DNA of 38,619 nucleotides from Woeseiaceae bacterium. Its GTDB lineage: Bacteria; Pseudomonadota; Gammaproteobacteria; Steroidobacterales; Woeseiaceae. The notes under the pieces were generated by a model, which saw nothing but the letters and a program-made list of their open reading frames with translations, was not told the origin of the DNA and did not search any database. Shown here one piece after another: positions 19,943-35,226 of the stretch (position 1 is the first letter of the stretch; the number at the start of each line of letters is the position of its first letter). The position numbers were made by a program, and so were the translations under genes. The stretch covers positions 1-38,619 of the forward strand of contig JAWWBD010000001.1 in assembly GCA_033721115.1 (NCBI GenBank), given 5' to 3'.

Positions 19943-20920
19943 TCAGCCCCCCGAGATCCGGGCGATCGCGTAGCAGGCGTAGGCCACGATGAACAGGGCG
20001 CCCGCCGGCCGGCCGAGACGCGCACTGCCGAGCAGGAAAACCGGCAGGATCGCTGCCGCCAGCAGCCAGGACACGACGAGGTCGCCGACGCCGCCGGCCG
20101 GCACCCGGATCGGCGCGATCAGGCCGCTGACGGGAAGGACGATGAGCGAATTGAAGATATTCGAGCCGATGACGTTGCCGAGCGCCAGGTCCGACTCGTC
20201 CTTGATCGCAGCGATGACCGACGTCACGAGCTCCGGCATGCTCGTCCCCACGGCGACGACGAAAAGCCCGACGATTGCCGGCGCCACGCCCAGCCGTTCC
20301 GACAGCGCAATGCCGTTCCTGATCGTGATCTCCCCGCCGAGGAACAGGAGTCCGCAGCCGCCGATGATGAGCAGCCATTGCCAGCGGCTCGCGCCGGGCG
20401 CCAGCACCTGCGTATGCCCGCCGATGTCGGCGAAGAGCTTGTCACCTTCGCGCATGCCCTTCAGGTCGAGCGCAACGAAATAGAGGAAGATGCAGAACAT
20501 CAGCATCAGCAGGATGGAATCGGACCGGCCGATCCGGGCCGGCTCGCCCTCGAGCGGGCCGTCGAGGGCCATGACGGCCATCATCGTCGTCGCGAGCAGG
20601 AACAGCGGCAGCTCCCGCCGTACCGCGTCGCCCTGGAGCGCAATCGGGGTCATCAGTGCCGCCGCCCCCAGGACGAGGCCGAGGTTGCTGATGTTCGAGC
20701 CGACGACGTTACCGAAAGCAAGGCCGGTTTCGCCTTCGAGCGCACCGATTATGTTGACCACGAGCTCCGGGGCGCTCGTCCCGAAACCGACGATTGTCAG
20801 TCCCACGATCATCGGCGAAATGCCGAGAGTTGTTGCGAGCTCCGAGGCGCCGCGTACGAGCAACGCGCCGCCCCCGATCAGCAGCACGAGCCCGAGTACG
20901 ATGCCGGCAAAGGCGAGCAT
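19943..20920 (-). CDS. calcium/cation antiporter (CaCA family, YrbG-like)
   Basis: Two alpha-repeat motifs are present: GTSAPELVVNIIGAL...GNVVGSNISNLGLVLG and GTSMPELVTSVIAAI...GNVIGSNIFNSLIVL. Length is 325 aa. Its stop abuts the MscS stop with zero spacer (TGATCA). Confidence 0.85.
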   Translation of the reverse strand: MLAFAGIVLGLVLLIGGGALLVRGASELATTLGISPMIVGLTIVGFGTSAPELVVNIIGALEGETGLAFGNVVGSNISNLGLVLGAAALMTPIALQGDAVRRELPLFLLATTMMAVMALDGPLEGEPARIGRSDSILLMLMFCIFLYFVALDLKGMREGDKLFADIGGHTQVLAPGASRWQWLLIIGGCGLLFLGGEITIRNGIALSERLGVAPAIVGLFVVAVGTSMPELVTSVIAAIKDESDLALGNVIGSNIFNSLIVLPVSGLIAPIRVPAGGVGDLVVSWLLAAAILPVFLLGSARLGRPAGALFIVAYACYAIARISGG

Positions 20921-21027
20921 GGCACGAGCTTACACTCTTTCCGGGGCCGGTTTGGTATAACAAACGCTGCCGAAAGGCCTCTAAGCACTGTGCGCAATAC
21001 AGCCAGGGAATCCCATTGACCCAGACC

Positions 21028-21993
21028 ATGCCAAACTTCCTGTTCAGCTGCCTGCTCGACGGTCCGCGCCGCGGCGAGGACCTCGACGTGGCCGCCATCC
21101 GCGGCTGGACGCCCGCCGACGGCAAACTGTGGCTGCACATCGACGTCCGCGACCAGCCCTCGCGGGACTGGCTCATCGACGAGAGCGGCTTGCCGGACGA
21201 GGCCGTGGACACGCTGCTCGCCGAGGAAACCCGGCCGCGCTCACACGTTATCGGGGACGGTGCGTTGCTCGTGCTGCGTGGCGTCAACACGAACCCGGGC
21301 CAGGATCCCGAGGACATGGTCTCGGTGCGGGTCTGGATCGACGGGGACCGCGTCATCAGTTCCCGCAGGCGCCGGCTGCTGTCGGTCATCGACGTCCACG
21401 ACGCGATTCGCGCAGGCGAGGGGCCGGAAACGCCGGGCGAGTTCCTCGCCGCGGTCATCGAGCGTCTCGCCGACCGGATCGGCGACTTCGTCGACTCGAT
21501 CGAGGACCGCATCGACGCCGCCGAAGACGCCATCGAGACCGAGTCGGCTGCGACCACGCGGCCGCAGCTTGCCGCACTCAGGCGACAGATTGCCTCCGTC
21601 CGGCGCTTCCTGGCGCCGCAGCGCGACGCCCTCGATCGATTGAACCGGCATCCCCCGGCCTGCCTCTCGGTGACGGATTCGCAGGCGTTGCGTGAAGAGG
21701 CCGACCGCATTACGCGTTACCTCGAAGACCTGGATCTCGCCCGTGAGCGCGCGATCGTCCTGCAGGAGGAACTGCTGAGCAAGGTGGCCCAGGAGCAGAA
21801 CTCGCGCATGTACGTGCTGTCCATCGTCGCTGCGCTCTTTCTGCCCCTGACCTTCGTCACCGGACTGCTCGGCATGAACGTGGGCGGACTGCCCGGCCTC
21901 GAGAATGCACGCGGATTCCTGAATTCGGTGCTCGTGATGGGCGTCGCGGCCGTGGTGCTGTTCGTTTTCTTCCGCTGGAAGAAGTGGCTGTAG
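21028..21993 (+). CDS. zntB: CorA-superfamily divalent cation transporter, ZntB-like
   Basis: I moved the start to ATG 21028 (MPNFLFSCLLDG...). The C-terminus has two TM helices with the GMN signature (FVTGLLGMNVGGLPG). Length is 321 aa. The upstream part of the listed ORF overlaps the divergent CaCA gene. Confidence 0.75.
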   Translation: MPNFLFSCLLDGPRRGEDLDVAAIRGWTPADGKLWLHIDVRDQPSRDWLIDESGLPDEAVDTLLAEETRPRSHVIGDGALLVLRGVNTNPGQDPEDMVSVRVWIDGDRVISSRRRRLLSVIDVHDAIRAGEGPETPGEFLAAVIERLADRIGDFVDSIEDRIDAAEDAIETESAATTRPQLAALRRQIASVRRFLAPQRDALDRLNRHPPACLSVTDSQALREEADRITRYLEDLDLARERAIVLQEELLSKVAQEQNSRMYVLSIVAALFLPLTFVTGLLGMNVGGLPGLENARGFLNSVLVMGVAAVVLFVFFRWKKWL

Positions 21994-21997
21994 GTCC

Positions 21998-23731
21998 TTG
22001 CGCCGCGACGACCTGATTCGCCCGCACGCGGGGCGACTGCTGGCCTGCCTGCTCTTGATACCAGGCGCGGCGGTCGCGGAGCTCCGCATTTCGGACATCG
22101 ACCGCGAACTCGAGCGCAACATCCGCACCTACGTGGCACTCGCAAGCGAGCCCTGCGACGCGGAAGCGTGGCGCATCCGGCGCCGTTTTCGCAACGTCGA
22201 AAAAGAAACGCGGGAGGCGCTCCAGCCCTTCGGATACTACTCGCCCGCCGTCTCGGCCACGCTCGAAATGCGCGACGAGTGCTGGCACGTAGACCTGGAC
22301 GTCGTGCCCGGCGAACCGGTCCGCCTGCGCGACATCGACATCGACATCCGCGGCGAAGCGGCAGAGGATCCCGCCTTCGCAGAGCTCGAACCGACGGGCC
22401 TCACGGCCGGCGCCCGCCTCAGGCACGCGGACTACGAACGCTACAAGCAGTCGATCCAGGTCCTCGCCGCGGATCGCGGATATATCGACGCCGAGTTCGT
22501 CCGGAGCCGGCTCGACGTCTGGCCGGACGAGCTGGCTGCCGACGTAACGCTCCACTTCGAGAGCGGTGCACGCTACCGGCTCGGCGACATCCGCCAGGAA
22601 CAGGACTTCCTCGACCCGGCCGTGGTGTCCGGCTACCTCGATCTCGAGGAAGACACGCCGTTCGACGGCCGCGAACTCGCGCGCGCCTACCGGGACCTGT
22701 CGGACAGCGGCTACTTCGGGCGTGTCGAGATCGTGCCGCTGCACGAACAGGCAGACGACGGCAGGATCCCCGTGCGCGTCACGCTGACGCCCGGAACCCG
22801 CATCGAGTACACGGTCGGCGTCGGCGCATCGACGGATACGGGGCCGCGCTTCCGCGCCGGGTTCCGCAACAACCGGCTGAACCCCGACGGGCACCGGCTC
22901 ATCACCGATCTGAACGTCTCGACGGCGCTCAAGGGCCTGTCCGGCGAGTACCGGATGCCACTGACGGACCCGCGCAGCGACTGGATGAGCTATACGGCTG
23001 CGCTGACCCGCGAGACGGTGGATACCTTCGACAACGATACGGCGCGCGTCGGTCTCAGGCGCTCGAAGCGTCTCAACCCGGCGTGGATCAGGACGCTGTC
23101 CTTCGACGTGACCTATGAAAGCTACACGGTGGCCACCGAGCGCGACAACAGCCTGCTCGTCCTGCCCGGCATCGCTTTCGACCACAAGTTCGCGAACCGC
23201 GACCTCTATCCCAACCGCGGCCGCCGCTTGGGGATCGAGCTGATCGGCACGAGCCGGGCGCTCGGTTCGGGGACGTCTTTCGCGCAGGTCAAGGCGTTCA
23301 CCCGCTGGGTACGGGGGCTCGGCGAGAACAGCCGGCTCATCGCGCGGGCCACGGCGGGCACGACGCTCAAATCGGAATTCGACGAGCTGCCACCGTCGGT
23401 ACGTTTTTTCGCGGGCGGCGACGAGTCGATCCGGGGCTTTGCGTATGAAAGTCTCGGTCCCGAAGACGACGAGGGCAACGTCATCGGGGGCAGCAATCTG
23501 CTCGTCGCCAGCATCGAAGTCGAACGCCGGATCCGCGGCAACTATTTCGGGGCCGTCTTCGCCGATGCAGGGAACGCCTTCGACGACGTCGACGTGGACC
23601 CGGCGGCCGGTGCCGGCTTCGGCATCAAGTGGCGCTCGCCACTCGGCCCGGTCCGCGTTTACGTCGGCTTCCCGCTGACCGGCGAGGAATCGGGTCCGCG
23701 GCTGCACATCCGGCTGGGGCCGGACCTGTGA
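21998..23731 (+). CDS. tamA: translocation and assembly module outer-membrane component TamA (Omp85 family)
   Basis: 577 aa. A signal peptide (...LLLIPGAAVA) is followed by POTRA-like repeats and an Omp85 barrel (FFAGGDESIRGFAYESLGP, ...GAGFGIKWRSPLGPVRVYVGFPL). It has a TTG start 4 nt after the zntB stop, with no in-frame ATG nearby. Confidence 0.85.
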   Translation: MRRDDLIRPHAGRLLACLLLIPGAAVAELRISDIDRELERNIRTYVALASEPCDAEAWRIRRRFRNVEKETREALQPFGYYSPAVSATLEMRDECWHVDLDVVPGEPVRLRDIDIDIRGEAAEDPAFAELEPTGLTAGARLRHADYERYKQSIQVLAADRGYIDAEFVRSRLDVWPDELAADVTLHFESGARYRLGDIRQEQDFLDPAVVSGYLDLEEDTPFDGRELARAYRDLSDSGYFGRVEIVPLHEQADDGRIPVRVTLTPGTRIEYTVGVGASTDTGPRFRAGFRNNRLNPDGHRLITDLNVSTALKGLSGEYRMPLTDPRSDWMSYTAALTRETVDTFDNDTARVGLRRSKRLNPAWIRTLSFDVTYESYTVATERDNSLLVLPGIAFDHKFANRDLYPNRGRRLGIELIGTSRALGSGTSFAQVKAFTRWVRGLGENSRLIARATAGTTLKSEFDELPPSVRFFAGGDESIRGFAYESLGPEDDEGNVIGGSNLLVASIEVERRIRGNYFGAVFADAGNAFDDVDVDPAAGAGFGIKWRSPLGPVRVYVGFPLTGEESGPRLHIRLGPDL

Positions 23732-26700
23732 GAGCCGTTCGCTGGTTCATACGAATCACGGCGACGATCATCCTGGTCGCGCTGCTGGGCATTGCCGCCG
23801 TCGGTATCGTCATCGGCACGGAGAAAGGTACGCGCTGGGCACTGGGCGTCGTCGCAGGGTATGCGCCCGGCGAACTGGTGCTCGCCGGGCCCTCGGGCTC
23901 GCTGCTCGGGGGCCTGACCCTCGAGCGGCTCGATTGGCAAAACGAAACCACGGCCATCAGCGCCGAACAGGTCCTGCTGAACATCGACCTTTTGCCGCTT
24001 CTCAGGCGCCGGCTCGACGTACACGCGCTCGCAATGGAACGCTTCGAATTGCGGCTCCCCGAACCTGACCCGGACGCAGAGGAAGGGGAACCGCTGGCCG
24101 TCGGGCTGCCGATCGACATCGGCATCGCCGATGCGAGAATCGCCGCCATCGCAATCCTGCGCGGCGAGTCGAGCTATGCGATCAGGGATACCGCTTTCGC
24201 CGCGACGCTGGAAGGTCCGCGACTCACCGCATCCCGGCTCACGGCCGCAGCTTTCGGGCTGGTTTTCGACATTGAAGGCCGGGTGCGCCTGGCCGGCGAA
24301 ATGCCGGTGCGCCTGAGCGGGCAATGGCGGCAGGCAGACGGCGCCGAGCCGGGTCTCGCCGGCTCGGCGCGACTTGCAGGGCAGGACAACGTCTTCACGG
24401 TTCAACACGATCTGTCCGCGCCGGTCGCCGTGGCCTCACAGGGATCACTCCGGGTTGCCGACGAGGGACTGGTCTTCGATGTCGTCAATACCTGGAACGA
24501 GATCCGGCGCGAGATCGGCGGCCGGGAACTGGTCACGCCCGGCGGCACGCTCGTCACCCGGGGCACGCTCGACGCGCTCGCGGTCGAACTGGAGACCCGC
24601 GCCCGGTACGGCGACTACCCCGCGACAGACATCCGGCTGGCGGGCGTGACGGACCTCGAATCGATTCGTATCGACAGCCTGCTCCTCGACAACGACCTGA
24701 CCCGCGCGGACATCGACGGCAGCGCATCACTCGTGCCCGACCCGAACGCCGACATCGCCTTTCGCCTGACCGGCCTCGACCCGGCCCGCCTCCGGCCCGG
24801 GGTCGAGGGCGAACTCGCCGCCGACGGCACGGCAGCGATCCGCCTGCCGGCGTCGGGGCTCGAGGTCGATCTCCGCATCGCGGCGCTCGACGGCACGTTC
24901 GAGGGCCACGCAGTCGCGGCCAACGGCAGCGTCGATATCCGGCCGGAGGGAATCGAGGTCCCTGCGGCCGAGCTCCGTCTCGGCGGGAACGCGGTCTCGG
25001 CGAGCGGCCGGCTCGACGAGCGCGTGAACCTGACCGCCCGGCTCGAGCTCGACGCCATCGGTGAGTTGCTCCCGGCGGCGGCCGGTTCCGCCGTCGTCGA
25101 CGTCGAGCTGGCGGGGCCGCGGGACGCCCCGGCCGGCGTGATCAGCGTTACCGGGACGGGACTCGGTTACGGGACCGCGGCCGTCGAGACGGCATCGGTG
25201 ACGGTCCGCGGTTCCCTCGCGAGCCACACGATCACGGGCACGCTCTACGCCTACGAGACCGACATCGAGGTCGAGGCAGCAGGTTCCCTCGAGGCGGGTG
25301 GCTGGGCGGGCGAGGCGCGGCGCCTGGCGCTGGCGCGAGACGGCCTGGGCCGCTGGACGACGAAGCAGCCGGCCGCCGTCAGCGTCGGGCCTGACGCGGT
25401 CCGGGTCGACGAACTCTGCTTCCTGCGGGACAGCGACGGAACCGAGTCCTGTGCCGACGTCGACTACCGCCGCGAAGGCCGCTCGGAATTCACGGCCTCG
25501 ATCGCCGGGCTGCCGGTGACGGCGCTGCCCTTCGTCGCACCCGCCGGCGTCACGGTCACGGGCACCATCGGCGCACAGGCGCGCGGCACGCTGGAAAACG
25601 GCCTCCTCAATGCCGCGGCGGAACTCACGGCTGCGGGTGCCTCTGTCAGCGCGAGCTACGAGGGCGAGGAGACCCGGGTCGCATTCGACGAGGTTGCGGC
25701 CACGGCCACGGTGACGGACAACCGGCTCGCGTCGTCGCTCTCGATCAGCCTCGGCGAAGACGCGGGCGGCCTGACCGGTGAACTGAACGTAGCGGACCTG
25801 GCGGCCGCCGACGCGCCGATCGACGGGCGCGCCAGCGTGTCGCTCCGCGACGCCGCCATATTCGATGTGTTCCTGCCGGCGATTGCGAATCCGCGCGGCA
25901 CCATCGGGGGCACGATCGAGTTTTCCGGCACGCGCGCCGCGCCCGAGTTCGTCGGCGACATCCGGCTGAGCGACGGCTCGTTTGCCGTGCGGCCGGCCGG
26001 GATCACGGTCACGGAGGTCACGCTGCGCGCGCAGCAGCTCGGGCCAGGCCGGCTCCGCGTGACGGGCGATGCGCGCTCCGGGGAGGGCCGTGTGTCCGTT
26101 ACGGCCAACACGATGTTTGCGACCGACACGGGAATGCGTTCGGAGGTACGCCTCGAGGGCGAAAACTTCGAGCTTTTGCGGCAGCCGGACTGGCGCGTGT
26201 CGGCGTCGCCGAGGATCGACATACTGTTCGATGAGCGGACGGCCATCGTCACGGGCAGCCTCGCGATCCCGCAGGCCGACATCCGGGTGCAGACCATCCC
26301 GGAGACCGCGGTGCGGCCGACACCCGACGCCGTCGTACATACGGCGGGCGAAATGGGCCAGCAGACCGGACGCCACATCGAAATCGACGTCGACACGACG
26401 CTCGGCAAGGACGTGCGCTTCGAAGGCTTCGGTCTCACGACCAACCTCGCGGGCGCCGTTCGCGTCCAGGGCGGCTCGCAGCAGCCGTACCTCGGTTTCG
26501 GCCAGGTCGACCTGGAGGGCGGCCGCTACGAAGCCTACGGCCAGGACCTGACGATCGAGCAGGGCCGCCTGATCTTCAACGGGCCCCTGGCGTCGCCGAC
26601 GCTCGATATCCGCGCGACCCGGCGCGTCGACAGCGTCGTCGCCGGTATCCACGTGACCGGTCGTCCCGCGCAGCTGCGCTCCACGGTCTTCAGCGAGCCT

Positions 26701-27075
26701 GCGATGAGTGATGCGGAAACGCTCTCCTACCTGCTGACCGGGCGACCGCTTTCCAGCGCGACGACCTCGGCGGAGGGCGATATCCTGAACACGGCCGCGT
26801 TCGCCCTGGGCATGTCGCAGGCGGGCTCCATCGCCGCCCAGATCGGCGGCGCGCTCGGCCTCGAGACCCTGAGCGTCGAAGGCGGCGCCGAGGACGGCAG
26901 GATCGTCGCCGGCAAGCGCATCGGCGGGCGCCTGTTCGTCGAATACGGCTACGGGCTCATCGACAAGCTCGGCACGCTGCTCTTGCGCTACCAGATCAAT
27001 AACCGCCTCATGCTCGAGTCGCGCACCGGTACGGTAAGCAACCTGGACATCGTGTACAGTGTGAAAAAACAATGA
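23728..27075 (+). CDS. tamB: translocation and assembly module inner-membrane component TamB (AsmA-like, DUF490 C-terminus)
   Basis: I set the start at GTG 23728, which overlaps the tamA stop (GTGA). An N-terminal TM anchor (VRAVRWFIRITATIILVALLGIAAVGIVIG) is followed by a long beta-rich region. The C-terminal DUF490-like segment reads ...LSYLLTGRP...GKRIGGRLFVEYGYGL...LLLRYQINNRLMLESRTG. Confidence 0.85.
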   Translation: MRAVRWFIRITATIILVALLGIAAVGIVIGTEKGTRWALGVVAGYAPGELVLAGPSGSLLGGLTLERLDWQNETTAISAEQVLLNIDLLPLLRRRLDVHALAMERFELRLPEPDPDAEEGEPLAVGLPIDIGIADARIAAIAILRGESSYAIRDTAFAATLEGPRLTASRLTAAAFGLVFDIEGRVRLAGEMPVRLSGQWRQADGAEPGLAGSARLAGQDNVFTVQHDLSAPVAVASQGSLRVADEGLVFDVVNTWNEIRREIGGRELVTPGGTLVTRGTLDALAVELETRARYGDYPATDIRLAGVTDLESIRIDSLLLDNDLTRADIDGSASLVPDPNADIAFRLTGLDPARLRPGVEGELAADGTAAIRLPASGLEVDLRIAALDGTFEGHAVAANGSVDIRPEGIEVPAAELRLGGNAVSASGRLDERVNLTARLELDAIGELLPAAAGSAVVDVELAGPRDAPAGVISVTGTGLGYGTAAVETASVTVRGSLASHTITGTLYAYETDIEVEAAGSLEAGGWAGEARRLALARDGLGRWTTKQPAAVSVGPDAVRVDELCFLRDSDGTESCADVDYRREGRSEFTASIAGLPVTALPFVAPAGVTVTGTIGAQARGTLENGLLNAAAELTAAGASVSASYEGEETRVAFDEVAATATVTDNRLASSLSISLGEDAGGLTGELNVADLAAADAPIDGRASVSLRDAAIFDVFLPAIANPRGTIGGTIEFSGTRAAPEFVGDIRLSDGSFAVRPAGITVTEVTLRAQQLGPGRLRVTGDARSGEGRVSVTANTMFATDTGMRSEVRLEGENFELLRQPDWRVSASPRIDILFDERTAIVTGSLAIPQADIRVQTIPETAVRPTPDAVVHTAGEMGQQTGRHIEIDVDTTLGKDVRFEGFGLTTNLAGAVRVQGGSQQPYLGFGQVDLEGGRYEAYGQDLTIEQGRLIFNGPLASPTLDIRATRRVDSVVAGIHVTGRPAQLRSTVFSEPAMSDAETLSYLLTGRPLSSATTSAEGDILNTAAFALGMSQAGSIAAQIGGALGLETLSVEGGAEDGRIVAGKRIGGRLFVEYGYGLIDKLGTLLLRYQINNRLMLESRTGTVSNLDIVYSVKKQ

Positions 27076-27085
27076 GGGAGGCCCC

Positions 27086-28390
27086 GTGGATCGCCTGACC
27101 GTACTGGCCCGCGAATACGGACAGCTCGTCGTGGACTTCGTCACCCGACCCGAGATCTGGATCCAGCTCGTCATCATCGCGGGAATCGTCGTCCCCGCGG
27201 TCCTGCTCGCCCGCCGCGTGGAACCGCGGCTCGAGGAGCGGGCGCGCCAGATCAGGAGAATGCCCGGGCTGCTCAGGATCATCATCGCGTTCCTGCGCCG
27301 GTTCGAGTGGATCTTCTTCGTGCTCTTCCTCGCGGTCGCCTACATCGCGACCGGGACGACCGGCTGGCCCGGCAGTAATTACCTGATCTATGCGGCCATG
27401 CTGCTCTCCGGTGCATGGCTCCTGATCTCGGTCGTATCGCACGCGGTCCGCAGCCGCATCCTGCGCAGGACATTCGCGATCGTGGCCTGGATCTACGTCG
27501 CGGCGAAGATCCTCGGCATCACGGACGACGTGGCGATCTTCCTCGACAGCGCAGGCTTCAACGTCGGCGACATGCGCTTCTCCCTGCTGACCCTGCTCAA
27601 GACCGGGCTGCTCCTGGGTCTCGCGCTCTGGGTGTCCTTCGCGTTCGGCAACTTCCTCGACCGCCGCATCCAGACCGTCGACGAGCTGACCCCGTCACTG
27701 CGCGTTCTGCTCGGCAAGATCATTCGCATCGGCCTCGTGGCCTTTGCCGGCATCATCGTCGTCTCCGGTCTCGGCATCGATCTCACGGCGCTGACCGTGC
27801 TGTCCGGTGCCGTCGGTGTCGGTATCGGCTTCGGCCTGCAGAAAGTCGTCTCGAATTTCATTTCCGGCATCATCATCCTGCTCGACCAGTCGATCAAACC
27901 CGGCGACACGATAACGCTGGGCGAGACCTTCGGCTGGATCCGCGAACTGCGTGCGCGCTTCGTGTCAGTGATCACCCGTGACGGAAGGGAATACCTGATA
28001 CCGAACGAGGATTTCATCACGCGCGAGGTCATCAACTGGTCGTTTTCCGACAAGTTCGTCCGCCTCGACGTCGATTTCGGCGTGTCGTACAGCGCCGACC
28101 CGCACGAGGTAATTCGCCGGGCGGGCGAGGCCGCTGCCGGCGTCGACCGCGTCCAGACCGACGCCAAGCAACCGGTCTGCTGGATGACCGAGTTCGGCGA
28201 TTCCTCGATCAATTTCAAGCTCCGGTTCTGGATAGACGATCCGCAGCAGGGCCTGACGAATATCCGTGGCCAGGTTCTGATTGCCCTGTGGGACACCTTC
28301 AAGGAGCACGGTATCGGCATTCCGTTCCCGCATCGCGAGGTCCTGTTCCGGACCCCGCTCAACATCGTCACCGACCAGCCGGGAACCTGA
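27086..28390 (+). CDS. mechanosensitive ion channel family protein (MscS-like with extended N-terminal membrane domain)
   Basis: The GTG start has GGGAGG 5 nt upstream and lies 10 nt after the tamB stop. The MscS core reads GVGIGFGLQKVVSNFISGIIILLDQSIKPGDTITLGETFGWIRELRARFVSVITRDGREYLIPNEDF. Confidence 0.85.
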   Translation: MDRLTVLAREYGQLVVDFVTRPEIWIQLVIIAGIVVPAVLLARRVEPRLEERARQIRRMPGLLRIIIAFLRRFEWIFFVLFLAVAYIATGTTGWPGSNYLIYAAMLLSGAWLLISVVSHAVRSRILRRTFAIVAWIYVAAKILGITDDVAIFLDSAGFNVGDMRFSLLTLLKTGLLLGLALWVSFAFGNFLDRRIQTVDELTPSLRVLLGKIIRIGLVAFAGIIVVSGLGIDLTALTVLSGAVGVGIGFGLQKVVSNFISGIIILLDQSIKPGDTITLGETFGWIRELRARFVSVITRDGREYLIPNEDFITREVINWSFSDKFVRLDVDFGVSYSADPHEVIRRAGEAAAGVDRVQTDAKQPVCWMTEFGDSSINFKLRFWIDDPQQGLTNIRGQVLIALWDTFKEHGIGIPFPHREVLFRTPLNIVTDQPGT

Positions 28391-28420
28391 GACGCGAGGC
28401 GCACTGGCGGGCCGGGACCA

Positions 28421-29314
28421 ATGGCACAAGAAGCAGACGACAGCCCGACGGTATCGCTCGTACTCGGCAGCGGCGGTGCGCGCGGGCATGCGCACATCGG
28501 CGTGATCCGCGCGATCGAGGAACGCGGCGTGCGAATCCGGAACATCGCGGGTACGTCGATGGGTTCCGTCATCGGCGGAATGCGTGCCGCGGGAGAGCTC
28601 GACACCTACGCGGACTGGGCGTTTGCGCTCAGCGGCAAGGACGTCGTCAGGCTGCTCGACTTTGCCTTTACCTGGACATCGATATTCAAGGGCGAACGGA
28701 TCTTCGGCGTACTCAAGGAGCTCGTCGGCGATCGCGACATCGAGGACCTCGATCTCGGGTTTACCGCGGTCGCGACGGCGATCGATGAACAGCGCGAAGT
28801 CTGGCTCAATCGCGGCTCCCTGTTTCGCGCGATCCGGGCATCGACGGCGGTGCCGGGCGTGTTCAGCCCGGTGGAGATCGGCGGCCGCACGCTCGTCGAC
28901 GGCGGCCTGATCAATCCGATCCCGATTGCGCCGACGCTGAACGATGCAACCGACATGACCATTGCGGTCAATCTCAACAGCCTGGCGGAATCCTACTCGC
29001 CGCCGGAAGGCGAAGCAGCGGAACCGCTGCCGGACGGCGCTTCGTACGCACAGAAGATTTCCCGTTTCATCCGCGAATTGATCGCAGACGACGACTCGGA
29101 ATCACCGGCGCCGGATGCGGCGGACCTGCTGACCCGTTCGATCGACGTGATGCAGGGAGCGATCGCCCGCCTGAAACTCGCCGCCTACAGTCCCGACAAA
29201 GTCATCGAGATTCCCCGCGATGCCTGTACGTTTTTCGAGTTTCACCGGGCGCGGGAAATGGCCGACCTGGGTTACGAAAAGACGATGGCCGCGCTCGACG
29301 ACATGGAACTCTAG
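28421..29314 (+). CDS. patatin-like phospholipase (RssA-like)
   Basis: It has the oxyanion motif LGSGGARG, the nucleophile elbow GTSMG (GxSxG), and the catalytic Asp motif LVDGGL. Length is 297 aa. Confidence 0.85.
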   Translation: MAQEADDSPTVSLVLGSGGARGHAHIGVIRAIEERGVRIRNIAGTSMGSVIGGMRAAGELDTYADWAFALSGKDVVRLLDFAFTWTSIFKGERIFGVLKELVGDRDIEDLDLGFTAVATAIDEQREVWLNRGSLFRAIRASTAVPGVFSPVEIGGRTLVDGGLINPIPIAPTLNDATDMTIAVNLNSLAESYSPPEGEAAEPLPDGASYAQKISRFIRELIADDDSESPAPDAADLLTRSIDVMQGAIARLKLAAYSPDKVIEIPRDACTFFEFHRAREMADLGYEKTMAALDDMEL

Positions 29315-29367
29315 CGCCCGATCCGTCACTGGCGCTGCCGCAGCCGGCGCCGGAACGGCTTGTGTTA

Positions 29368-29745
29368 TCACTCCGCGGACGCCCGCCGGCGTTTCGTGTC
29401 GCCCGTGAGGGACAGCCATTCGCGCATGAAGCGGCGGCCTTTGGCCGTCAGGAAAATCCGCTTGACCCGGAGGTTCAGCGGATCGACCCGGAGTTCGAGC
29501 AGACCCGGTCCCGGCGTCTTGCGCGTCGTGAGCGCAGAGAGGTCTGCGAGGTTGCGGGACAGGGCCGTGATCGACGTCGATTCGAGATGGGTCAGCAACT
29601 CGCGCTGGCTCAGCCCTTCGTGAAAATAGACCGCGATCAGGATCAGCAGACGCTGTGCCGTGATGTCGGGACTGAGCTTCGCGCGCGCATAGCGCAACGC
29701 GCGATCCAGCGCCATGAGGGTCTTTGCCTGCGCGTCTGCGGCCAT
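29368..29745 (-). CDS. MarR-like winged-helix transcriptional regulator
   Basis: I moved the start to ATG 29745 (MAADAQAKTLMALDRAL...). The 125-aa product has a wHTH-like core, LSQRELLTHLESTSITALSRNLADLSAL...RVDPLNLRVKRIFLTAKGRRF. The listed 293-aa ORF is an Arg/Pro/Ser-rich upstream extension. Confidence 0.6.
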   Translation of the reverse strand: MAADAQAKTLMALDRALRYARAKLSPDITAQRLLILIAVYFHEGLSQRELLTHLESTSITALSRNLADLSALTTRKTPGPGLLELRVDPLNLRVKRIFLTAKGRRFMREWLSLTGDTKRRRASAE

Positions 29746-29771
29746 GCTCGCCGACCGGTGCCGAAAAATCC

Positions 29772-29800
29772 ATGATAGGGCAATAGTTGCGGTATCGCAA
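29772..29800 (-). promoter_or_regulatory. shared promoter/operator module, copy 1 (upstream of the MarR-like gene)
   Basis: In gene sense it reads TTGCGA-N17-TATCAT. The plus strand carries CAATAGTTGCGGTATCGCAA at 29781-29800, containing the palindrome TTGCG-N4-CGCAA. The -10 ends 26 nt before ATG 29745. Confidence 0.5.
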
Positions 29801-29884
29801 CCATCTTCTGCCCGTTTGCAGGAACCCGGCGGGGTGTCGCGCAAAGCCGGCTCGTCACGCCATCGGCAGCGCGGGGTCGATGGT

Positions 29885-31705
29885 TCAGCCTTCCGCCGCG
29901 GCTGCCTCCTCTGTGGATCGCTCCCCTTCCGGCACCAGCGCGGTAACCCGGGACCCGGCCGGGACCCGCATTTCGTCGACGTCCACGGGGAACCGGATGC
30001 GGCCGTCCTGCTCGGTGACGAACAACACGATCCGGTCAGGGTGCTTGGCACGGTAGCTTTCGAAGGAAAACGTTTCCGTAATCTCGGTGGTCCGCGTGTC
30101 GATGTTGCCGCTGACGATGTCGAGCAGATCATCCATCGACCGGCGGCCGCCGAACAGGACACGCCCGCCCGTTTCGCCGGTGATCTGGTGTTTCTCGTGC
30201 ACGTCCGAGTTTTGCGGGACCGTATAGACCGATTCCCTGCCGAATTCATAGCGAAACCGCACGCAGGCGAGTTCGTTGAGGCCCGGCCGATGGGACAGTG
30301 CGAGCAGGTGGCCGAGGCCCATCACGTCGAGATGCCGGTCTGCATAGCCCGATACCGGGCTGCCGTAGTAGACCGGAAGTCCTTTCATCCGCGCCTTGCT
30401 GATCCCGTCCCAGCCCATCGACGCAACCAGGACCCGGTGCCCCGCCTCGTGCAGCGCCTCGGCGTAGGCCAGTGCGGCGGCGTTGGCGCCGACGACCAGC
30501 ACGCCCGTCGGATCAGGGTCCTTGACCCGGAGCCAGCGCGCGAGTAGCCCGCCCGTCAGGCTCTGGATCACGACGGTGCCGACGATGATGATGAATACCA
30601 TCGGCACGAGCAGGTCCGCGCCATCGACCGCGAGGTCCTCGAGCCGGAGCGCGAACAGCGCGGAAACGGCAGCGGCGACGATACCGCGCGGGAACAGCCA
30701 GCCGAGGTAGAGGCGCTCGCGCCAGTCGAGCTCGCTGCCGACGGAGCTGATCGCGGCGCGCAGCGGTCCGGCAATGAACTGCAACGCGAGCAGCACCGCG
30801 ATGGCGCCGGAACCCAGTGCCAGCAGCGCATCCAGGTCGATTCGCGCGGCCAGCACGATGAACAGTCCCGCGACCAGCACCAGCGTCAGGCTCTCCTTGA
30901 AGTCGAGGATGTCTTCGAGATCGACGCCCTTCATGTTCGCCTGCCAGACGCCCATCACGGTCACGGCAAGCAGGCCCGACTCGGATGCGACGGCTTCGGA
31001 CATCGCGAACACGGCGATGACGAGCGCGAGCGCCGCGTAGTCGCGCAGGTAGTCCGGGAGCCAGTGCCTGCGGAGCACGATGCCGAATGCCTGGCCGGCG
31101 ACGGCGCCGAGGCCGAGACCCGTGGCCACGATCAGCCCGAAGGTCGTGTAGAGCTGCATGGTCGTTGCGGCGGTCAGCTCGACGACGATGAAGTTGAAGA
31201 CCAGCACCGCGAGGATCGCGCCCAGCGGATCCACGAGGATGCCCTCCCAGCGAATGACGCTCGACAACGATCGCGTCGGGCGGATGGTGCGCAGGAGCGG
31301 CATGATCACGGTCGGGCCGCTGACCGTCACGATGGCACCGAAGAGGGCCGCGAGGTACCAGCTCCAGTCGAGGAAGTAGAGCGCCGTCAGCGTCGCAACC
31401 ACCCAGGTCGTCAGCACGCCGACCGAGACGAGATTGCGCACGACAGCACCATGACCCCGGATCTCGGAGAACCTGAGCGTGAGACTGCCCTCGTAGAGAA
31501 TGACGGCGACGGCGAGGGACACGAAGGACTGGAGCAGGTCGCCGAACATCGCGTCGGGCTCGAGCAGCCCGAGGACCGGCCCCGCGAGGATGCCGGTCAG
31601 CAACAGGAACAGTATCGACGGCAGCTTGACGCGCCACGCCAGCCACTGGCAGGCGAAGCCGGCGACGAGCACGGCGCTTAAGATAAACAGGTCATGGCCG
31701 TGCAT
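29885..31705 (-). CDS. CPA1-family Na+(K+)/H+ antiporter with C-terminal RCK/TrkA-like domain
   Basis: 606 aa. The N-terminal region of about 400 aa is polytopic (MHGHDLFILSAVLVAGFACQWLAWRVKLPSILFLLLTGILAGP...). A Rossmann-like segment, GVLVVGANAAALAYAEALHEAGHRVLVAS, and a TrkA-C-like tail follow. Confidence 0.8.
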   Translation of the reverse strand: MHGHDLFILSAVLVAGFACQWLAWRVKLPSILFLLLTGILAGPVLGLLEPDAMFGDLLQSFVSLAVAVILYEGSLTLRFSEIRGHGAVVRNLVSVGVLTTWVVATLTALYFLDWSWYLAALFGAIVTVSGPTVIMPLLRTIRPTRSLSSVIRWEGILVDPLGAILAVLVFNFIVVELTAATTMQLYTTFGLIVATGLGLGAVAGQAFGIVLRRHWLPDYLRDYAALALVIAVFAMSEAVASESGLLAVTVMGVWQANMKGVDLEDILDFKESLTLVLVAGLFIVLAARIDLDALLALGSGAIAVLLALQFIAGPLRAAISSVGSELDWRERLYLGWLFPRGIVAAAVSALFALRLEDLAVDGADLLVPMVFIIIVGTVVIQSLTGGLLARWLRVKDPDPTGVLVVGANAAALAYAEALHEAGHRVLVASMGWDGISKARMKGLPVYYGSPVSGYADRHLDVMGLGHLLALSHRPGLNELACVRFRYEFGRESVYTVPQNSDVHEKHQITGETGGRVLFGGRRSMDDLLDIVSGNIDTRTTEITETFSFESYRAKHPDRIVLFVTEQDGRIRFPVDVDEMRVPAGSRVTALVPEGERSTEEAAAAEG

Positions 31706-31823
31706 GCGTCGCGGTTTCCGCCTGGCGATTAATCGGTCATCCCGGTATCAGGAAGGGGCCATCCGGACAGTCCGGCCCGGGGAACAGCGGCGCCAGTTTA
31801 GCAGAACTGCGCGTTCGCGAGGA

Positions 31824-32111
31824 TCAGTGGAACCGGGCCCGGGCCGCTTTTCGCGCGATGGCGAGGCGCTGGCGCGCGTCGCGGAGACCGAGCTGGATGT
31901 CCGCCAGGTCCGGGTCATCTTCCGCGTCCATGGCCTCGAGTTTTTCGCCCACCTCGAGACAGCGTTTTTCGAGCAGGTCGAGATAGCGATCGAAACGGTC
32001 GTCGGTTTCCGGCCCTGCGGCGGCCGACTTTTCCTTCAGCCGATCGAGCTCGGCCCCGATGTCGCGAAGTTCGGCGCGTACATCCTGCTTGTCGATTGTT
32101 CCCGTCGTCAT
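31824..32111 (-). CDS. small (95 aa) acidic helical/coiled-coil hypothetical protein
   Basis: I moved the start to ATG 32111, with AGGAGG about 10 nt upstream. The sequence MTTGTIDKQDVRAELRDIGAELDRLKEKSAAAG...LDLLEKRCLEVGEKLEAMDAEDD...RQRLAIARKAARARFH is heptad-like. No family recognised. Confidence 0.5.
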   Translation of the reverse strand: MTTGTIDKQDVRAELRDIGAELDRLKEKSAAAGPETDDRFDRYLDLLEKRCLEVGEKLEAMDAEDDPDLADIQLGLRDARQRLAIARKAARARFH

Positions 32112-32287
32112 TGGATCGATCCTCCTGGATTTTTTTCCCGGCTTCCATCGGACGGCGGCCGGCCGGGCCGGGTGCGTGACCGTCATTTTTCCCGGGCCCC
32201 GGCACCGCACATGGCGTATGCTTCGTGCGCGCCAGCGTCCGGCGCTCCCGGTGGCCCGGCGTGTCGGGATGTCGCCGACCGCTTTTG

Positions 32288-32332
32288 AAGTTAACAGAAC
32301 AATTGCGTTATCGCAACTATTGCGTTTATGAG
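32288..32332. promoter_or_regulatory. shared promoter/operator module, copy 2, apparently bidirectional
   Basis: The plus strand reads TTGCGT (32303-08)-N17-TTATGA (32326-31), facing the NYN gene. The minus strand reads TTGCGA (reverse complement of 32311-16)-N17-TAACTT (reverse complement of 32288-93), facing the small coiled-coil gene. The minus strand also reads CAATAGTTGCGATAACGCAA. Confidence 0.5.
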
Positions 32333-32372
32333 CATCGCCCGGCATGATCCGCGCATGGCAAGGAACAACTCA

Positions 32373-33182
32373 ATGAACGAAGATCAGAATCTCGCGCTTT
32401 TTTGCGACTTCGAAAACATCGCGCTCGGCGTCCGCGACGCCAAGTATTCCAGGTTCGACATCGGGCCCGTACTCGAACGCCTGCTGCTGAAGGGCAGCAT
32501 CGTTGCAAAAAAGGCCTACTGCGACTGGGATCGCTACAAGCAGTACAAGCCGGCCATGCATGAAGCGGCATTCGAGCTCATCGAGATCCCGCATATCAAG
32601 CTGTCCGGCAAGAACTCAGCGGACATCCGGATGGTCGTCGATGCCCTCGATCTCTGCTATACGAAGGAGCACATCGATACGTTCGTCATCATATCGGGAG
32701 ACTCCGACTTCTCACCGCTGGTCAGCAAGCTGCGGGAGAACGCCAAGACGGTGATCGGCGTCGGCGTCAAGAACTCGACGTCCGACCTGCTGATCAGCAA
32801 CTGCGACGAATTCATTTTTTACGACGATCTCGTGCAACCGGACAGCACGGCCGAGGCGCCGGGCAAAAAGACGAAGAAAAAACGGTCCCGCAAGTCCGGC
32901 AGGAAAACAGCGCCGAAGAAGTCCGACCCGGCCCAGGAAGCGATCGACCTCGTCATCGAGACGACCGAGGCGCTCTACGCGGAGCGCGGCGACAAGACCA
33001 AGCTCTGGGGCTCGATGATCAAGCAGACCCTGAAGCGACGCAAGCCGGGCTTCAGTGAATCGGTCTACGGGTTCGGTTCATTCAGCGACCTGCTCGAGGA
33101 GGCCGCGCGGCGCAAGCAGCTGGAACTGGAGCGTGACGAGAAGTCCGGCGGCTACATCGTTCGCGGCGTACTAGCTTCCTAG
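32373..33182 (+). CDS. NYN (LabA/PIN-like) nuclease domain protein with C-terminal OST-HTH/LOTUS domain
   Basis: I prefer the start at ATG 32373 because AAGGAA lies 7 nt upstream, whereas the listed start at 32328 lies inside the predicted -10. NYN motifs are LALFCDFENI, GKNSADIRMVVDALDL and FVIISGDSDFSPLVSKLRENAKTVIGVG. A Lys-rich linker (GKKTKKKRSRKSGRKTAPKK) follows. The LOTUS-like end reads WGSMIKQTLKRRKPGFSESVYGFGSFSDLLEEA. Confidence 0.75.
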   Translation: MNEDQNLALFCDFENIALGVRDAKYSRFDIGPVLERLLLKGSIVAKKAYCDWDRYKQYKPAMHEAAFELIEIPHIKLSGKNSADIRMVVDALDLCYTKEHIDTFVIISGDSDFSPLVSKLRENAKTVIGVGVKNSTSDLLISNCDEFIFYDDLVQPDSTAEAPGKKTKKKRSRKSGRKTAPKKSDPAQEAIDLVIETTEALYAERGDKTKLWGSMIKQTLKRRKPGFSESVYGFGSFSDLLEEAARRKQLELERDEKSGGYIVRGVLAS

Positions 33183-33307
33183 CACGGCGAACGCGGCCAG
33201 GACGACGACAAGCGCCAGGGTGAAGGGCCAGAGGAACCGCCTCACACCCGGCTTCTTGACGATTTTTCTGAATGGCAGCGGCATGATGCCGGTCGCCTGA
33301 CGCCGCC

Positions 33308-33646
33308 TTACTGGCCGCTCTGGAGCTTGCTGGCGGCATCCTTGGCCTTGGACTCGAGGTCGGCGGCAGCATCCTTGGCCTTCTCGGTCATGTCACCCGC
33401 GGCTTCCTGCGCGGCATCCATGGCTTCCGAGGCCTCGCTCTCGACGCGCCCCATCGCGTCCTGGGCTTCGTCGCCGGCCTCTTCCATGGCGTCAGCGGCA
33501 TCATCGGTCATGTCCTCGGCGGCATCGCGTACATCTTCCACCGCGTTGTCCACGGCCTCGCCGGCCTCCTCAGCCGGACCGTCACTCTCGCAGGCGGCAA
33601 GCGCCAGCGTGCCGCAGACAAAAGCGATTTTCATCAGTGTTTTCAT
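33308..33646 (-). CDS. highly acidic lipoprotein composed of eight tandem 11-residue repeats (LEA/apolipoprotein-like periodicity)
   Basis: I moved the start to ATG 33646, with AAGGGAGAA 4 nt upstream. A signal peptide plus lipobox (TLALAAC) opens the protein. After ESDGP the remaining 88 residues divide exactly into 8 x 11-mers with Ala conserved at position 4 and acidic residues at positions 2 and 6. The DNA repeat GCATCCTTGGCCTT occurs at 33336 and again 33 nt later at 33369. Confidence 0.7.
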   Translation of the reverse strand: MKTLMKIAFVCGTLALAACESDGPAEEAGEAVDNAVEDVRDAAEDMTDDAADAMEEAGDEAQDAMGRVESEASEAMDAAQEAAGDMTEKAKDAAADLESKAKDAASKLQSGQ

Positions 33647-33677
33647 CGGTTCTCCCTTGGGTGTTGGAATTTTTGTC

Positions 33678-33706
33678 ACTATAAAGCAATAGTTGCGTAT
33701 CCGCAA
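33678..33706 (-). promoter_or_regulatory. shared promoter/operator module, copy 3 (upstream of the acidic lipoprotein gene)
   Basis: In gene sense it reads TTGCGG-N17-TATAGT. The plus strand carries CAATAGTTGCGTATCCGCAA at 33687-33706. The -10 ends 31 nt before ATG 33646. Confidence 0.5.
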
Positions 33707-33711
33707 TCTTT

Positions 33712-35226
33712 TCAGGCGACCTGCCCCGGCTGCTGCGCCGCGCGACCGAAAACGAGCACGCCGTCGGCGATGTCGGCAGCACGGAAACGTTTGCGGTCGG
33801 CGATGTAATCCTGCGGGTTGAGCCAGGGCTCCCGGTCTCCCTGCTTCGGCAGCCTGGCCACCACGCGCTGAATATAACCCGGCGAGAAGCCCGATACCCA
33901 GGGTCGCTGCGGCATCGCGCGATCTTCCGCCCTGAGCTCCGGCCTCGCCCAGTCGTAGCCGTGCTCGCCCGCGTAGTTGACGAGCCGGCAGAAATACTCG
34001 GCCACGAGGTCCGAGCGCAGCGTCCAGGAAGCATTGACGTAACCGAATGTCGAGACGAGGTTCGGCACGCCCGACAGCATGACGCCCTTGTAGGTGAATG
34101 CGTCGGCAGGATCGACCGGCGCGCCGTCGACGGTGAGCGCCATGCCCCCCAGGACGACGAGCTCGAGCCCCGTCGCCGTCACGATGATGTCCGCTTCGAG
34201 CACGGTGCCCGACGCGAGCGCAATACCGGTCTCGGTAAAGGACTCGATCCTGTCCGTGACGATCGACGCACTGCCATCGCGTAGCACCTCGAACAGGTCG
34301 CCGTTCGGCAACAGGCACAGCCGCTGGTCCCACGGGTCGTAAGTCGGCGTGAAGTGGCGCTCGACGTCGAACTCCGGGCCGAGTTCGTCGCGCACCCACT
34401 GCAAGAGCTTCCGCTTCACGCGCTCCGGGCGCCTCCGGGTCTGCCGGTACAGCCAGCGCTGCATCCGGATATTCTTCCAGCGCGTCAGCGCATAGGCCGC
34501 GCGATCGGGAAGCACCCTGCGCAGGGCATTGGCGATCGCGTCGCGGTCCGGCCAGGCGATGACCCAGGTCGGGGAACGCTGCAGCATGACGACGTGCCGT
34601 GCGCGACGGGCAAGTTGCGGGACCAGCGTCATCGCCGTCGCCCCCGAGCCGATCACGACGATCTTCCGGTCGGAACAGTCGAGGTCCTCTGGCCACTGTT
34701 GCGGATGGATAATCGTACCGCTAAATCGCTCGCGCCCCGTGAATTCGGGCAGGTGGCCCCGTTCGTAGGAATAATAGCCGGCGCAAACGAGCAGGAACCG
34801 GGCCTTCAGGCGTGCGGGCTCGCGATCGGGACCCTTTTCGACCTCCACCGTCCAGCGCGCCTCGCGGTCCGACCAGCTCGCGCCGGTCACGGCATGCCGG
34901 TAGCGGATATTTTGCCCGATCCCGAATTCGGCCGCGGTGTCGCGAATGTAGCCGAGGATCGCCGGGCCGTCGGCGATCGCCTGGGCCTCGCGCCAGGGAC
35001 GAAAACTGTAACCCAGCGTGTGCATGTCGCTGTCGGAACGGATGCCCGGGTAACGAAACAGGTCCCAGGTGCCACCCATGCGCTCGCGCCCCTCCAGCAC
35101 GACGTAACTCCTGCCGGCGCAGCGGCGCTCGATATGGCAGGCCGCGCCGACCCCGGAGAGACCGGCGCCCACGATAACGATGTCGAATGTTTCTGTTGCT
35201 ACGCTCATGGTGCTCGTACCGGACAT
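33712..35226 (-). CDS. flavin-dependent Baeyer-Villiger-type monooxygenase
   Basis: Two Rossmann motifs are present (FDIVIVGAGLSG and KIVVIGSGATA). The BVMO fingerprint FxGxxxHxxxW is present as FSGTIIHPQQWPED. Length is 504 aa. Confidence 0.85.
   Translation of the reverse strand: MSGTSTMSVATETFDIVIVGAGLSGVGAACHIERRCAGRSYVVLEGRERMGGTWDLFRYPGIRSDSDMHTLGYSFRPWREAQAIADGPAILGYIRDTAAEFGIGQNIRYRHAVTGASWSDREARWTVEVEKGPDREPARLKARFLLVCAGYYSYERGHLPEFTGRERFSGTIIHPQQWPEDLDCSDRKIVVIGSGATAMTLVPQLARRARHVVMLQRSPTWVIAWPDRDAIANALRRVLPDRAAYALTRWKNIRMQRWLYRQTRRRPERVKRKLLQWVRDELGPEFDVERHFTPTYDPWDQRLCLLPNGDLFEVLRDGSASIVTDRIESFTETGIALASGTVLEADIIVTATGLELVVLGGMALTVDGAPVDPADAFTYKGVMLSGVPNLVSTFGYVNASWTLRSDLVAEYFCRLVNYAGEHGYDWARPELRAEDRAMPQRPWVSGFSPGYIQRVVARLPKQGDREPWLNPQDYIADRKRFRAADIADGVLVFGRAAQQPGQVA

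Follow-up and report, generated by a model that had tools for sequence, protein, structure and literature searches.

What is the function of a near-identical block that stands three times within 4 kb of bacterial DNA, each time before a gene start? The question was raised by a stretch of 38,619 nucleotides (the window) from a Woeseiaceae bacterium (assembly GCA_033721115.1, contig JAWWBD010000001.1, positions 1 to 38,619). An initial annotation, made from the sequence letters, had described the three blocks (sites 1 to 3; Table 1) as promoters occupied by a palindromic operator, and had proposed that the operator is recognised by the product of an adjacent gene, a MarR-like protein of 125 residues (the regulator). 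In the analysis reported here, the sites were judged to be, very probably, protein-binding operators embedded in promoters. That the regulator is the protein that binds to them, and that it represses, was given a probability of about 0.7. What the analysis shows is the motif and its conservation, the promoter geometry, the physical association of sites with the regulator gene, and a MarR-like fold; binding and repression by this protein are what we infer from them.

Motif copies in the window

The 20-mer CAATAGTTGCGNNNNCGCAA was found without mismatch at 29781-29800 (+), 32303-32322 (-) and 33687-33706 (+), and no fourth copy was found in the 38,619-bp window even with 2 mismatches permitted. 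Dinucleotide-shuffled sequence gave a mean of 0.01 matches as against 3 in the real sequence, and none of 100 shuffles reached 3. The pattern CAATAGTTGCG-N4-CGCAA occurred exactly 3 times. Direct reading bore out the alignment of the initial annotation: three 29-nt stretches align without gaps, 16 of the 20 positions are invariant (the 11-mer CAATAGTTGCG plus CGCAA), and the palindrome TTGCG-N4-CGCAA is perfect at all three sites. The -10-like hexamers end, as had been stated, 26, 31 and 41 nt before ATG 29745, ATG 33646 and ATG 32373, respectively. CAATAG does not mark orientation: in the full consensus it belongs to the interior of a more extended palindrome, CGCAAtagTTGCG-N4-CGCAActaTTGCG, and is present on both sides. 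Scanning of the whole window with the bare 14-bp core yielded no further exact copy; the only matches with one mismatch (at 20297 and 32402) have no flanking sequence in common with the sites. The G+C content, about 0.65 in the surrounding sequence, falls to 0.45-0.49 at sites 2 and 3.

Sites 1 and 3 each read as a promoter on the minus strand. Site 1 has a -35 element TTGCGA (29800-29795), a 17-bp spacer and a -10 element TATCAT (29777-29772), and TTGCGA-17-TATCAT was called independently by a generic promoter scan. Site 3 has -35 TTGCGG (33706-33701) and -10 TATAGT (33683-33678). Its layout, with a flavin monooxygenase (FMO) gene on one side and an acidic lipoprotein gene on the other, is repeated in another locus (L117).

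Site 2 has two faces. On the minus strand, -35 TTGCGA (32316-32311) is followed by an extended -10, TGtTAACTT (32296-32288), directed toward a sll1863-like gene and a cation/proton antiporter gene. This promoter, TTGCGATAACGCAA-TTGTTCTG-T-TAACTT, is closer to the consensus of the family (see below) than is the TTATGA that faces the divergent NYN gene, and the full minus-strand site, aaCGCAAtagTTGCGATAACGCAAttgTTCTGtTAACTT, matches the family promoter throughout, TGnTAnnnT included. On the plus strand, -35 TTGCGT (32303-32308) and a weak -10, TTATGA (32326-32331), point toward the NYN gene, and the distance from TTATGA to the NYN start is that of the NYN -10 in relatives. The gap between the core and the NYN start is only 57 nt, so that any NYN promoter would be affected by bound protein. 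The chief promoter of site 2 may be the minus-facing one. The initial annotation had given every site the same orientation relative to its gene; site 2 is two-faced and not a promoter of NYN only. The link that it had drawn between the regulator, NYN and lipoprotein genes was kept. The sll1863-like and antiporter genes, which it had treated as bystanders, were added as a putative target of site 2, probably the main one.

An alternative is that the palindromes work in RNA, as hairpins for termination or stabilisation, or that they are repeats like repetitive extragenic palindromes (REP) or miniature inverted-repeat transposable elements (MITE). Sites 1 and 3 stand directly after same-strand genes (for the antiporter and the FMO) and could form hairpins of -20 and -12 kcal/mol, and a terminator scan flags site 3 with a 5-bp stem. 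However, the stems are short and no U-run follows them directly, variants with one mismatch carry one-sided and not compensatory changes, and a search of 29000-34000 against Rfam gave no match. In relatives, the sites are mostly in divergent promoter regions rather than at 3' ends. The weak stems and this promoter position of most family sites speak against the terminator reading. The REP/MITE reading was refuted by copy number and position: the window (38.6 kb) has 3 copies, each placed as in a promoter, and in the related loci (1.19 Mb) the copies nearly always precede members of the same few gene families. Explanations of this kind were considered the least probable of all those weighed, and very improbable.

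Linkage to the regulator gene in related genomes

Species-representative genomes were searched for orthologues of the regulator. The search yielded 72 loci (1.19 Mb in total), mostly from Woeseiaceae, with the rest from Azotimanducaceae/OM182, 'Chromatiales', Lysobacterales and the cultured Elongatibacter sediminis CH-27 (L039). TTGCG-N4-CGCAA occurred 87 times in the 1.19 Mb, or about 1.2 times per 20-kb locus, where 1.3-1.4 occurrences in all were expected. A site was present in 66 of the 72 loci; it was within 3.5 kb of the regulator gene in 65 and at most 200 bp upstream of that gene in 44. In other loci the site heads the operon of the regulator instead of adjoining its gene. A palindrome in either of these positions is a computational footprint of autoregulation.

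The neighbouring genes vary by lineage, and the pairing of site and regulator persists across the gene orders. In the first order, genes for superoxide dismutase (SOD), in some cases the Sll1863-like protein, the antiporter and the regulator form an operon on one strand with one site at its head; many relatives have the sll1863-like, antiporter and regulator genes in this order, with or without the SOD gene. In the second, a divergent pair of Dps and regulator genes has one common site. The third is regulator-antiporter, and in the fourth a lipoprotein gene is nearby. Four orthologues with far lower scores in the profile search described below (P0125, P0128, P0130 and P0137; E = 1e-17 to 1e-39) are each divergent from a ferritin/Dps gene, and in the three for which DNA was at hand (P0128, P0130 and P0137) an exact or one-mismatch palindrome lies in the spacer common to both genes. 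The oldest unit thus appears to be a divergent Dps/regulator pair on one operator.

Two checks named in the initial annotation were carried out. Phylogenetic footprinting was done against the closest relative (L193, regulator 95% identical): the antiporter-regulator spacer has diverged through substitutions, insertions and deletions except for a 26-bp operator block and the -10. In the motif search of related sequences, the pair of site and regulator recurred in about 100 related genomes and metagenome contigs, all from marine-sediment bacteria, with the site before stress genes such as those for SOD and Dps.

Genes beside the sites

An independent metagenome scan for TTGCGNTANCGCAANTATTG gave 120 loci, which were pooled with the genome loci. 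The genes beside sites in the pooled loci encode Fe/Mn SOD (57 loci), the regulator (54), Dps (42), the acidic lipoprotein (12, with the -10 intact in 12/12 and an MgtC gene next in 4), a conserved protein of about 100 residues with no Pfam match (9), NYN-LOTUS proteins (5, divergent from SOD or sll1863) and Usp-like proteins (3). SOD, ferritin and MgtC were assigned by Pfam. The initial annotation had guessed at osmotic, desiccation or envelope stress, a guess that was amended: the main targets in relatives are SOD and Dps, with Usp-like and MgtC genes in addition. A core of SOD and Dps points to general or oxidative stress and not specifically to osmotic or envelope stress, and the module looks like a general or oxidative stress set.

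Metagenome sites were scored with a flank-only matrix. Every one with family-like flanks and a recognisable neighbour adjoins a SOD, Dps, regulator, lipoprotein or Usp-like gene; five further sites with such flanks have no identifiable neighbour. About 60% of the 120 metagenome loci have none of these families nearby. Most of these have no family-like flanks, and look like chance matches or other lineages.

The protein of about 100 residues (e.g. MTDSGARNMPAEVAEIAECGYAIWARDD...) is encoded divergently from the operator-bearing SOD promoter in L008, L014, L020, L021, L033, L096, L142, L146 and L160, and could be a further member or partner of the system. In four metagenome loci of an unrelated high-GC lineage (L073, L129, L151 and L171; G+C 0.65-0.69), TTGCGnTAnCGCAAttattgc stands 22-23 nt before the start of genes for canonical MarR proteins of about 160 residues (Pfam MarR, E = 3e-17); the same palindrome thus recurs at the promoters of other MarR proteins. 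Two further recurrent high-GC metagenome families (L092/L098/L172/L186/L149/L177 and L097/L135/L165/L170) have the same 20-mer (for example ...catactTTGCGTTAACGCAActattgcgac...), in the contexts of a membrane cytochrome-like protein with a short-chain dehydrogenase and of an aldose-epimerase-like protein. These 20-mers may be operators of other regulators.

Promoter frame of the operator

Sites of relatives were oriented toward the downstream gene. The consensus of 53 unique SOD sites was tatCgCAAtagTTGCGaTAtCGCAActaTTgtG.TAg..T, and the Dps and lipoprotein sites were similar. TAnnnT was found exactly 17 bp past TTGCGN in 56 of 57 SOD, 42 of 42 Dps and 12 of 12 lipoprotein sites, usually preceded by TGn, which makes it an extended -10. 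The start codon follows the core by 38-58 nt (medians). The frame is therefore fixed, with TTGCGN as -35, a 17-bp spacer that holds CGCAA, TAnnnT as -10 and the centre of the palindrome at about -28.5. The claim of a sigma-70-like promoter whose -35 and spacer are filled by the palindrome was thus supported in relatives by the retention of TAnnnT at 17 bp. Many sites form a longer palindrome of four half-sites, CGCAA-N3-TTGCG-N4-CGCAA-N3-TTG(C/T)G, whose right flank is in part the extended -10; such palindromes may allow more than one dimer to bind. A centre at about -28.5 lies inside the promoter, and this is the geometry of repression by occlusion.

Three promoter elements (-35, extended -10 and -10) fall within the conserved block. 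On another reading the block is nothing more than a special promoter, for sigma-S or another sigma factor, with no dedicated DNA-binding protein. NYN promoters in relatives have TGTGnTAGCnT with no core adjoining, which marks that part as a feature of the promoter itself. A sigma factor has no need of two-fold symmetry, and two half-sites, the CGCAA of the spacer and the CGCAAtag that precedes the -35, match the -35 itself in conservation. In the divergent Dps/regulator pairs, moreover, the core is 13-15 nt before the start codon of the regulator and cannot be the -35 of that gene. We regard a promoter without its own binding protein as improbable, and only a hairpin or a REP/MITE-like repeat as more so.

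Binding by the regulator could also lead to activation or to dual action, for instance by antagonising a silencer as SlyA and RovA do; some MarR-family proteins, these two among them, activate transcription. In favour of such action, the operator of relatives stands upstream of the NYN promoter and not over it. The promoters of SOD, Dps, the lipoprotein and site 1 are otherwise well formed, and the operator takes up their -35 and 17-bp spacer; this is classic occlusion geometry, and a spacer of the optimal 17 bp has no need of MerR-like remodelling of the DNA. Activation was accordingly held to be unlikely, if somewhat less so than the special promoter, and repression by occlusion was preferred.

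The regulator protein

The 125-residue regulator matched no Pfam family even at E <= 10, its subfamily is covered by no NCBIfam model, and a sequence search of the PDB returned nothing. A profile search of 1.8 billion representative proteins gave 680 clusters at E <= 1e-3, of which no more than 10 reached E <= 1e-30. The close homologues number 654, are very strongly conserved and are nearly all metagenomic. Public records leave the family mostly unnamed; one member is 'hypothetical' at NCBI, and a few records of the Joint Genome Institute (JGI) say MarR-family.

Only a fold search and profile-to-profile comparison placed the protein. The AlphaFold2 model has the layout H-H-H-H-E-E-H (four helices, a hairpin and a helix). 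In a Foldseek search of the PDB with this model, the top 50 matches were all MarR-family proteins (TM 0.4-0.6, probability 0.98-1.00), with MepR, MarR, MexR, HosA and SlyA among them and 4lll, 3eco, 3bpv and 4zzl as the best. Membership of the MarR family was tested against the gathering thresholds of Pfam PF01047 / PF12802: no direct match reached them, and homology was found transitively. Three distant relatives (P0210, P0240 and P0267) reach the gathering score of Pfam MarR_2, and alignment of the family with six distant relatives, these three included, by hhalign gave 99.8% probability and E = 3e-29. A (K)KxPGPG insertion before the wing is common to the family and the distant relatives. 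The winged-helix, MarR-like identity given by the initial annotation was thus borne out through the fold and through the profile link to MarR_2 members. On its modelled fold and sequence profiles, the regulator is a divergent, short and uncurated branch of the MarR superfamily.

The region of the recognition helix, TSITALSRNLADLS, is nearly invariant among 18 aligned members, which matches the invariance of the half-site. Cysteine is absent from the protein of the window and from all 18 aligned homologues. Redox sensing through cysteine was therefore ruled out, and the inducing signal would be something other than cysteine oxidation.

A distant paralogue of the regulator (P0136, E = 2e-18) is encoded at 3001-3372 of a phage-like locus (L194, JGI Ga0620594_0001444). 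Its gene directly precedes a phage integrase gene, a phage-type RNA polymerase and a SprT-like protein are encoded nearby, and some 210 nt upstream there is an inverted repeat, GTGGGACAtTTGCgacaatGCAAgTGTCCCAC. Some repressors of mobile elements may therefore also come from the short MarR subfamily.

Genes of the block and its surroundings

The features of the block are collected in Table 1. Of the names given by the initial annotation, several were kept in part. The NYN domain of the NYN-LOTUS gene was detected, and the LOTUS/OST-HTH part remained below threshold at 20.5 bits. The CPA1-RCK antiporter has its Na+/H+ exchanger domain, with the RCK part undetected by Pfam. The 'small coiled-coil protein' proved to be a stress protein of the sll1863 family. 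Among the salt-induced general stress proteins of Synechocystis, Sll1863 ranks first (PMC8670252).

Table 1. Operator sites and genes of the block, with positions in the window.
Feature	Position	Strand	Description
Site 1	29772..29800	-	Core TTGCGATACCGCAA at 29800-29787, minus strand; putative promoter of the regulator's own gene
Regulator (REG)	29368..29745	-	125 aa; MarR-like winged helix; no cysteine; putative autoregulated repressor
Cation/proton antiporter	29885..31705	-	606 aa; Pfam Na_H_Exchanger, E = 7e-32; second gene of the putative site 2 operon
sll1863-family stress protein	31824..32111	-	95 aa; NCBIfam NF052504, 36.9 bits (cut-off 35)
Site 2	32288..32331	both	aaCGCAAtagTTGCGATAACGCAAttgTTC on minus strand; core 32303-32316; most complete operator
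NYN protein	32373..33182	+	Pfam NYN, E = 1e-36; divergent from site 2
Acidic repeat lipoprotein	33311..33646	-	Lipobox LAAC; weak matches to ApoLp-III, YtxH and Ag473 lipoprotein; putative target of site 3
Site 3	33678..33706	-	Core TTGCGGATACGCAA at 33706-33693, minus strand; putative lipoprotein promoter
Flavin monooxygenase (FMO)	33712..35226	-	Gene directly before site 3 on the same strand

Transcription from the minus-facing promoter of site 2 would reach the sll1863-like gene first, after a predicted leader of about 170 nt, in which no significant fold was found (z = -0.6). Relatives carry a Fe/Mn SOD gene at this place, which separates their operator from the sll1863-like gene; the window has some 170-190 nt of G+C-rich sequence there (32112-32290). 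Neither SOD nor Dps genes were found anywhere in the window, and no SOD remnant was found by tblastn between site 2 and the sll1863-like gene. In this genome SOD has apparently dropped out of the operon or been relocated.

A 37-codon hydrophobic open reading frame (MPLPFRKIVKKPGVRRFLWPFTLALVVVLAAFAVLGS; 33171-33284, minus strand) begins 26 nt past the stop codon of the lipoprotein gene, at the place where four relatives have an MgtC-family gene. It may be a small membrane peptide or a chance reading frame. On the side of the regulator gene away from the operators, genes for an MscS-type mechanosensitive channel and a patatin-like lipase (27086-29314) adjoin it, and this synteny is kept, with no site, in many relatives (L005, L007, L017, L022-L024 and L027). 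A second MscS paralogue is at 19043-19942. Genes for CorA (a Mg2+ transporter), TamA (Omp85/POTRA) and TamB (1148 aa) occupy 20794-27075, upstream of the stress block; they carry no motif and are ordinary envelope-assembly genes.

Proposed regulation

The proposed mechanism is as follows. TTGCGN would serve as -35 and CGCAA would lie in the spacer, and a dimer of the regulator bound to these half-sites would block RNA polymerase; where outer half-sites (CGCAA-N3 / N3-TTGCG) are present, binding of more than one dimer may be possible. Through site 1 the repressor would control its own gene. Through site 2 it would control an operon of the sll1863-like and antiporter genes, which would read through to the regulator gene, and also the divergent NYN gene; through site 3 it would control the acidic lipoprotein. 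In relatives the same operator would control Fe/Mn SOD, Dps, Usp-like and MgtC genes. Some signal would release the repressor, and a compact stress set would be switched on. Autoregulation by the adjacent winged-helix protein, as first proposed, is supported by the co-occurrence over 72 genomes, the retained -10, the footprint in the closest relative and the MarR fold.

Several observations weigh on the other side. The linkage in the genome loci is partly by design, these having been gathered through the regulator gene, and a motif flank formed part of the pattern by which the metagenome loci were gathered. The -10 that faces NYN in the window is weak, and the NYN promoter of relatives is about 45 bp away from the core. 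The AlphaFold2 model is only moderately confident (predicted local distance difference test, pLDDT, 63.5), and the regulator itself matches no Pfam model. Finally, the 14-bp core is identical in form to the boxes of FixK2 and NnrR, which are of the CRP/FNR family, and could be read by another protein.

This last point was examined as an alternative in its own right, in which a global regulator that responds to oxygen or nitric oxide reads the palindrome as a box of the CRP/FNR family (FixK/NnrR/Dnr type), and the MarR-like gene is merely a member of the regulon. The core TTGCG-N4-CGCAA agrees with the general 14-bp form TTGNN-N4-NNCAA of such boxes, and is itself a documented FixK2/NnrR box at norE, nnrR and hemN2 of Bradyrhizobium, among the targets in B. 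diazoefficiens (PMC6710368). Control of SOD and Dps by oxygen would make physiological sense for sediment bacteria. The box is centred at -28.5, however, and not at the -41.5 of a class II activator; no -10 is conserved at the class II distance, and a median of 42 nt separates core and start codon, which would leave almost no leader at a class II promoter. An FNR class II activator was ruled out by this geometry. Conservation extends well past 14 bp, to the outer half-sites and a central nTAn, which is atypical of FNR boxes. No typical FNR target and no respiratory or denitrification gene was found among the neighbours of family-like sites. The sites also stay linked to the MarR-like gene through rearrangements and deep divergence, as those of a local regulator do. 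The 14-bp core has the same form, and the operator differs from FixK2/NnrR boxes in its position at about -28.5 within the promoter, its conserved flanks and its tie to a MarR-like and not a CRP/FNR gene. A CRP/FNR reader was judged unlikely, though the least so of the four alternatives, and an FNR-type protein that represses is conceivable; a local MarR-type repressor was retained as the preferred reading.

A wider proposal can be made tentatively, and we think it more likely to be wrong than right: that the operator and its regulator are a previously unrecognised stress switch, present throughout the Gammaproteobacteria that dominate marine sediments (Woeseiaceae and neighbouring groups) and run by a minimal, cysteine-free MarR repressor with a non-thiol signal. 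If so, the signal could be, for example, ionic strength, a metal or a metabolite. One operator would then govern a portable survival set of SOD, Dps, Sll1863-like protein, cation/proton antiporter, LEA-like lipoprotein, MgtC, Usp-like proteins and NYN-LOTUS RNA-binding nuclease. The switch would take over, at least in part, the roles of OxyR, SoxR and sigma-S in model bacteria, and would give the Sll1863 and bacterial NYN-LOTUS families their first functional context.

Woeseiales make up 1-22% of 16S rRNA gene sequences from marine sediments (PMC7082342). The operator is now linked to a largely unnamed protein family, with its 654 close homologues outside any Pfam or NCBIfam model. The putative regulon is small and testable, and joins SOD and Dps to the Sll1863 family, NYN-LOTUS proteins, the acidic lipoprotein and the protein of about 100 residues. 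Its promoters and transcription starts are precisely predicted, and the cultured carrier E. sediminis CH-27 makes experiments feasible.

Comparison with known systems

The initial annotation knew of no described regulon with this operator or gene set, and literature searches agreed with it. Publications on MarR regulators of sod or dps, on regulators of Woeseia, on the motif and on divergent dps/MarR pairs were searched, and no description of the regulator, operator or regulon was found. None of these genes is mentioned in a recent comparison of Woeseiaceae. A paper on PhaR/AniA was set aside, as it has similar pentamers in a target list only and the motif is different.

CosR/EctR are described as MarR-type repressors that keep osmotic-stress genes off until stress occurs, in Vibrio and in methanotrophs (bioRxiv 10.1101/845297). 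They are a possible functional analogue if the signal is ionic, a lead from the literature and not a statement of membership. The CosR/EctR targets are genes for synthesis and uptake of compatible solutes, none of which was seen here.

OhrR, MgrA and SarZ are likewise MarR-type repressors of oxidative-stress genes. They sense through a conserved reactive cysteine, whereas the family described here has none, and no ohr gene was found among the genes adjoining the sites. In model bacteria, dps and sod genes answer to OxyR, PerR, Fur and sigma-S. The output genes (Dps and SOD) are thus the same, and the regulators belong to different families (LysR, Fur and sigma factors) with different DNA motifs.

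The closest comparison is with the classical autoregulated MarR repressors (E. coli MarR at marO, S. aureus MepR and P. aeruginosa MexR). The regulator has the winged-helix fold and the wing motif DPxNxRxKxxxLTxxG in common with them, and as in those systems a palindromic operator overlaps the -35 and -10 of its own and neighbouring promoters. The half-site TTGCG resembles the TTGCC of marO. Unlike the classical repressors, the regulator has 125 and not about 140-150 residues, carries the (K)KxPGPG insertion between recognition helix and wing, and has no direct Pfam or NCBIfam match. Its putative operator is a 5-4-5 palindrome with optional outer half-sites, and its putative targets are stress-protection proteins, where those of the classical repressors are efflux pumps. 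The mechanism proposed, a local MarR-type repressor that would occlude a promoter, is conventional; the family and the gene set are new.

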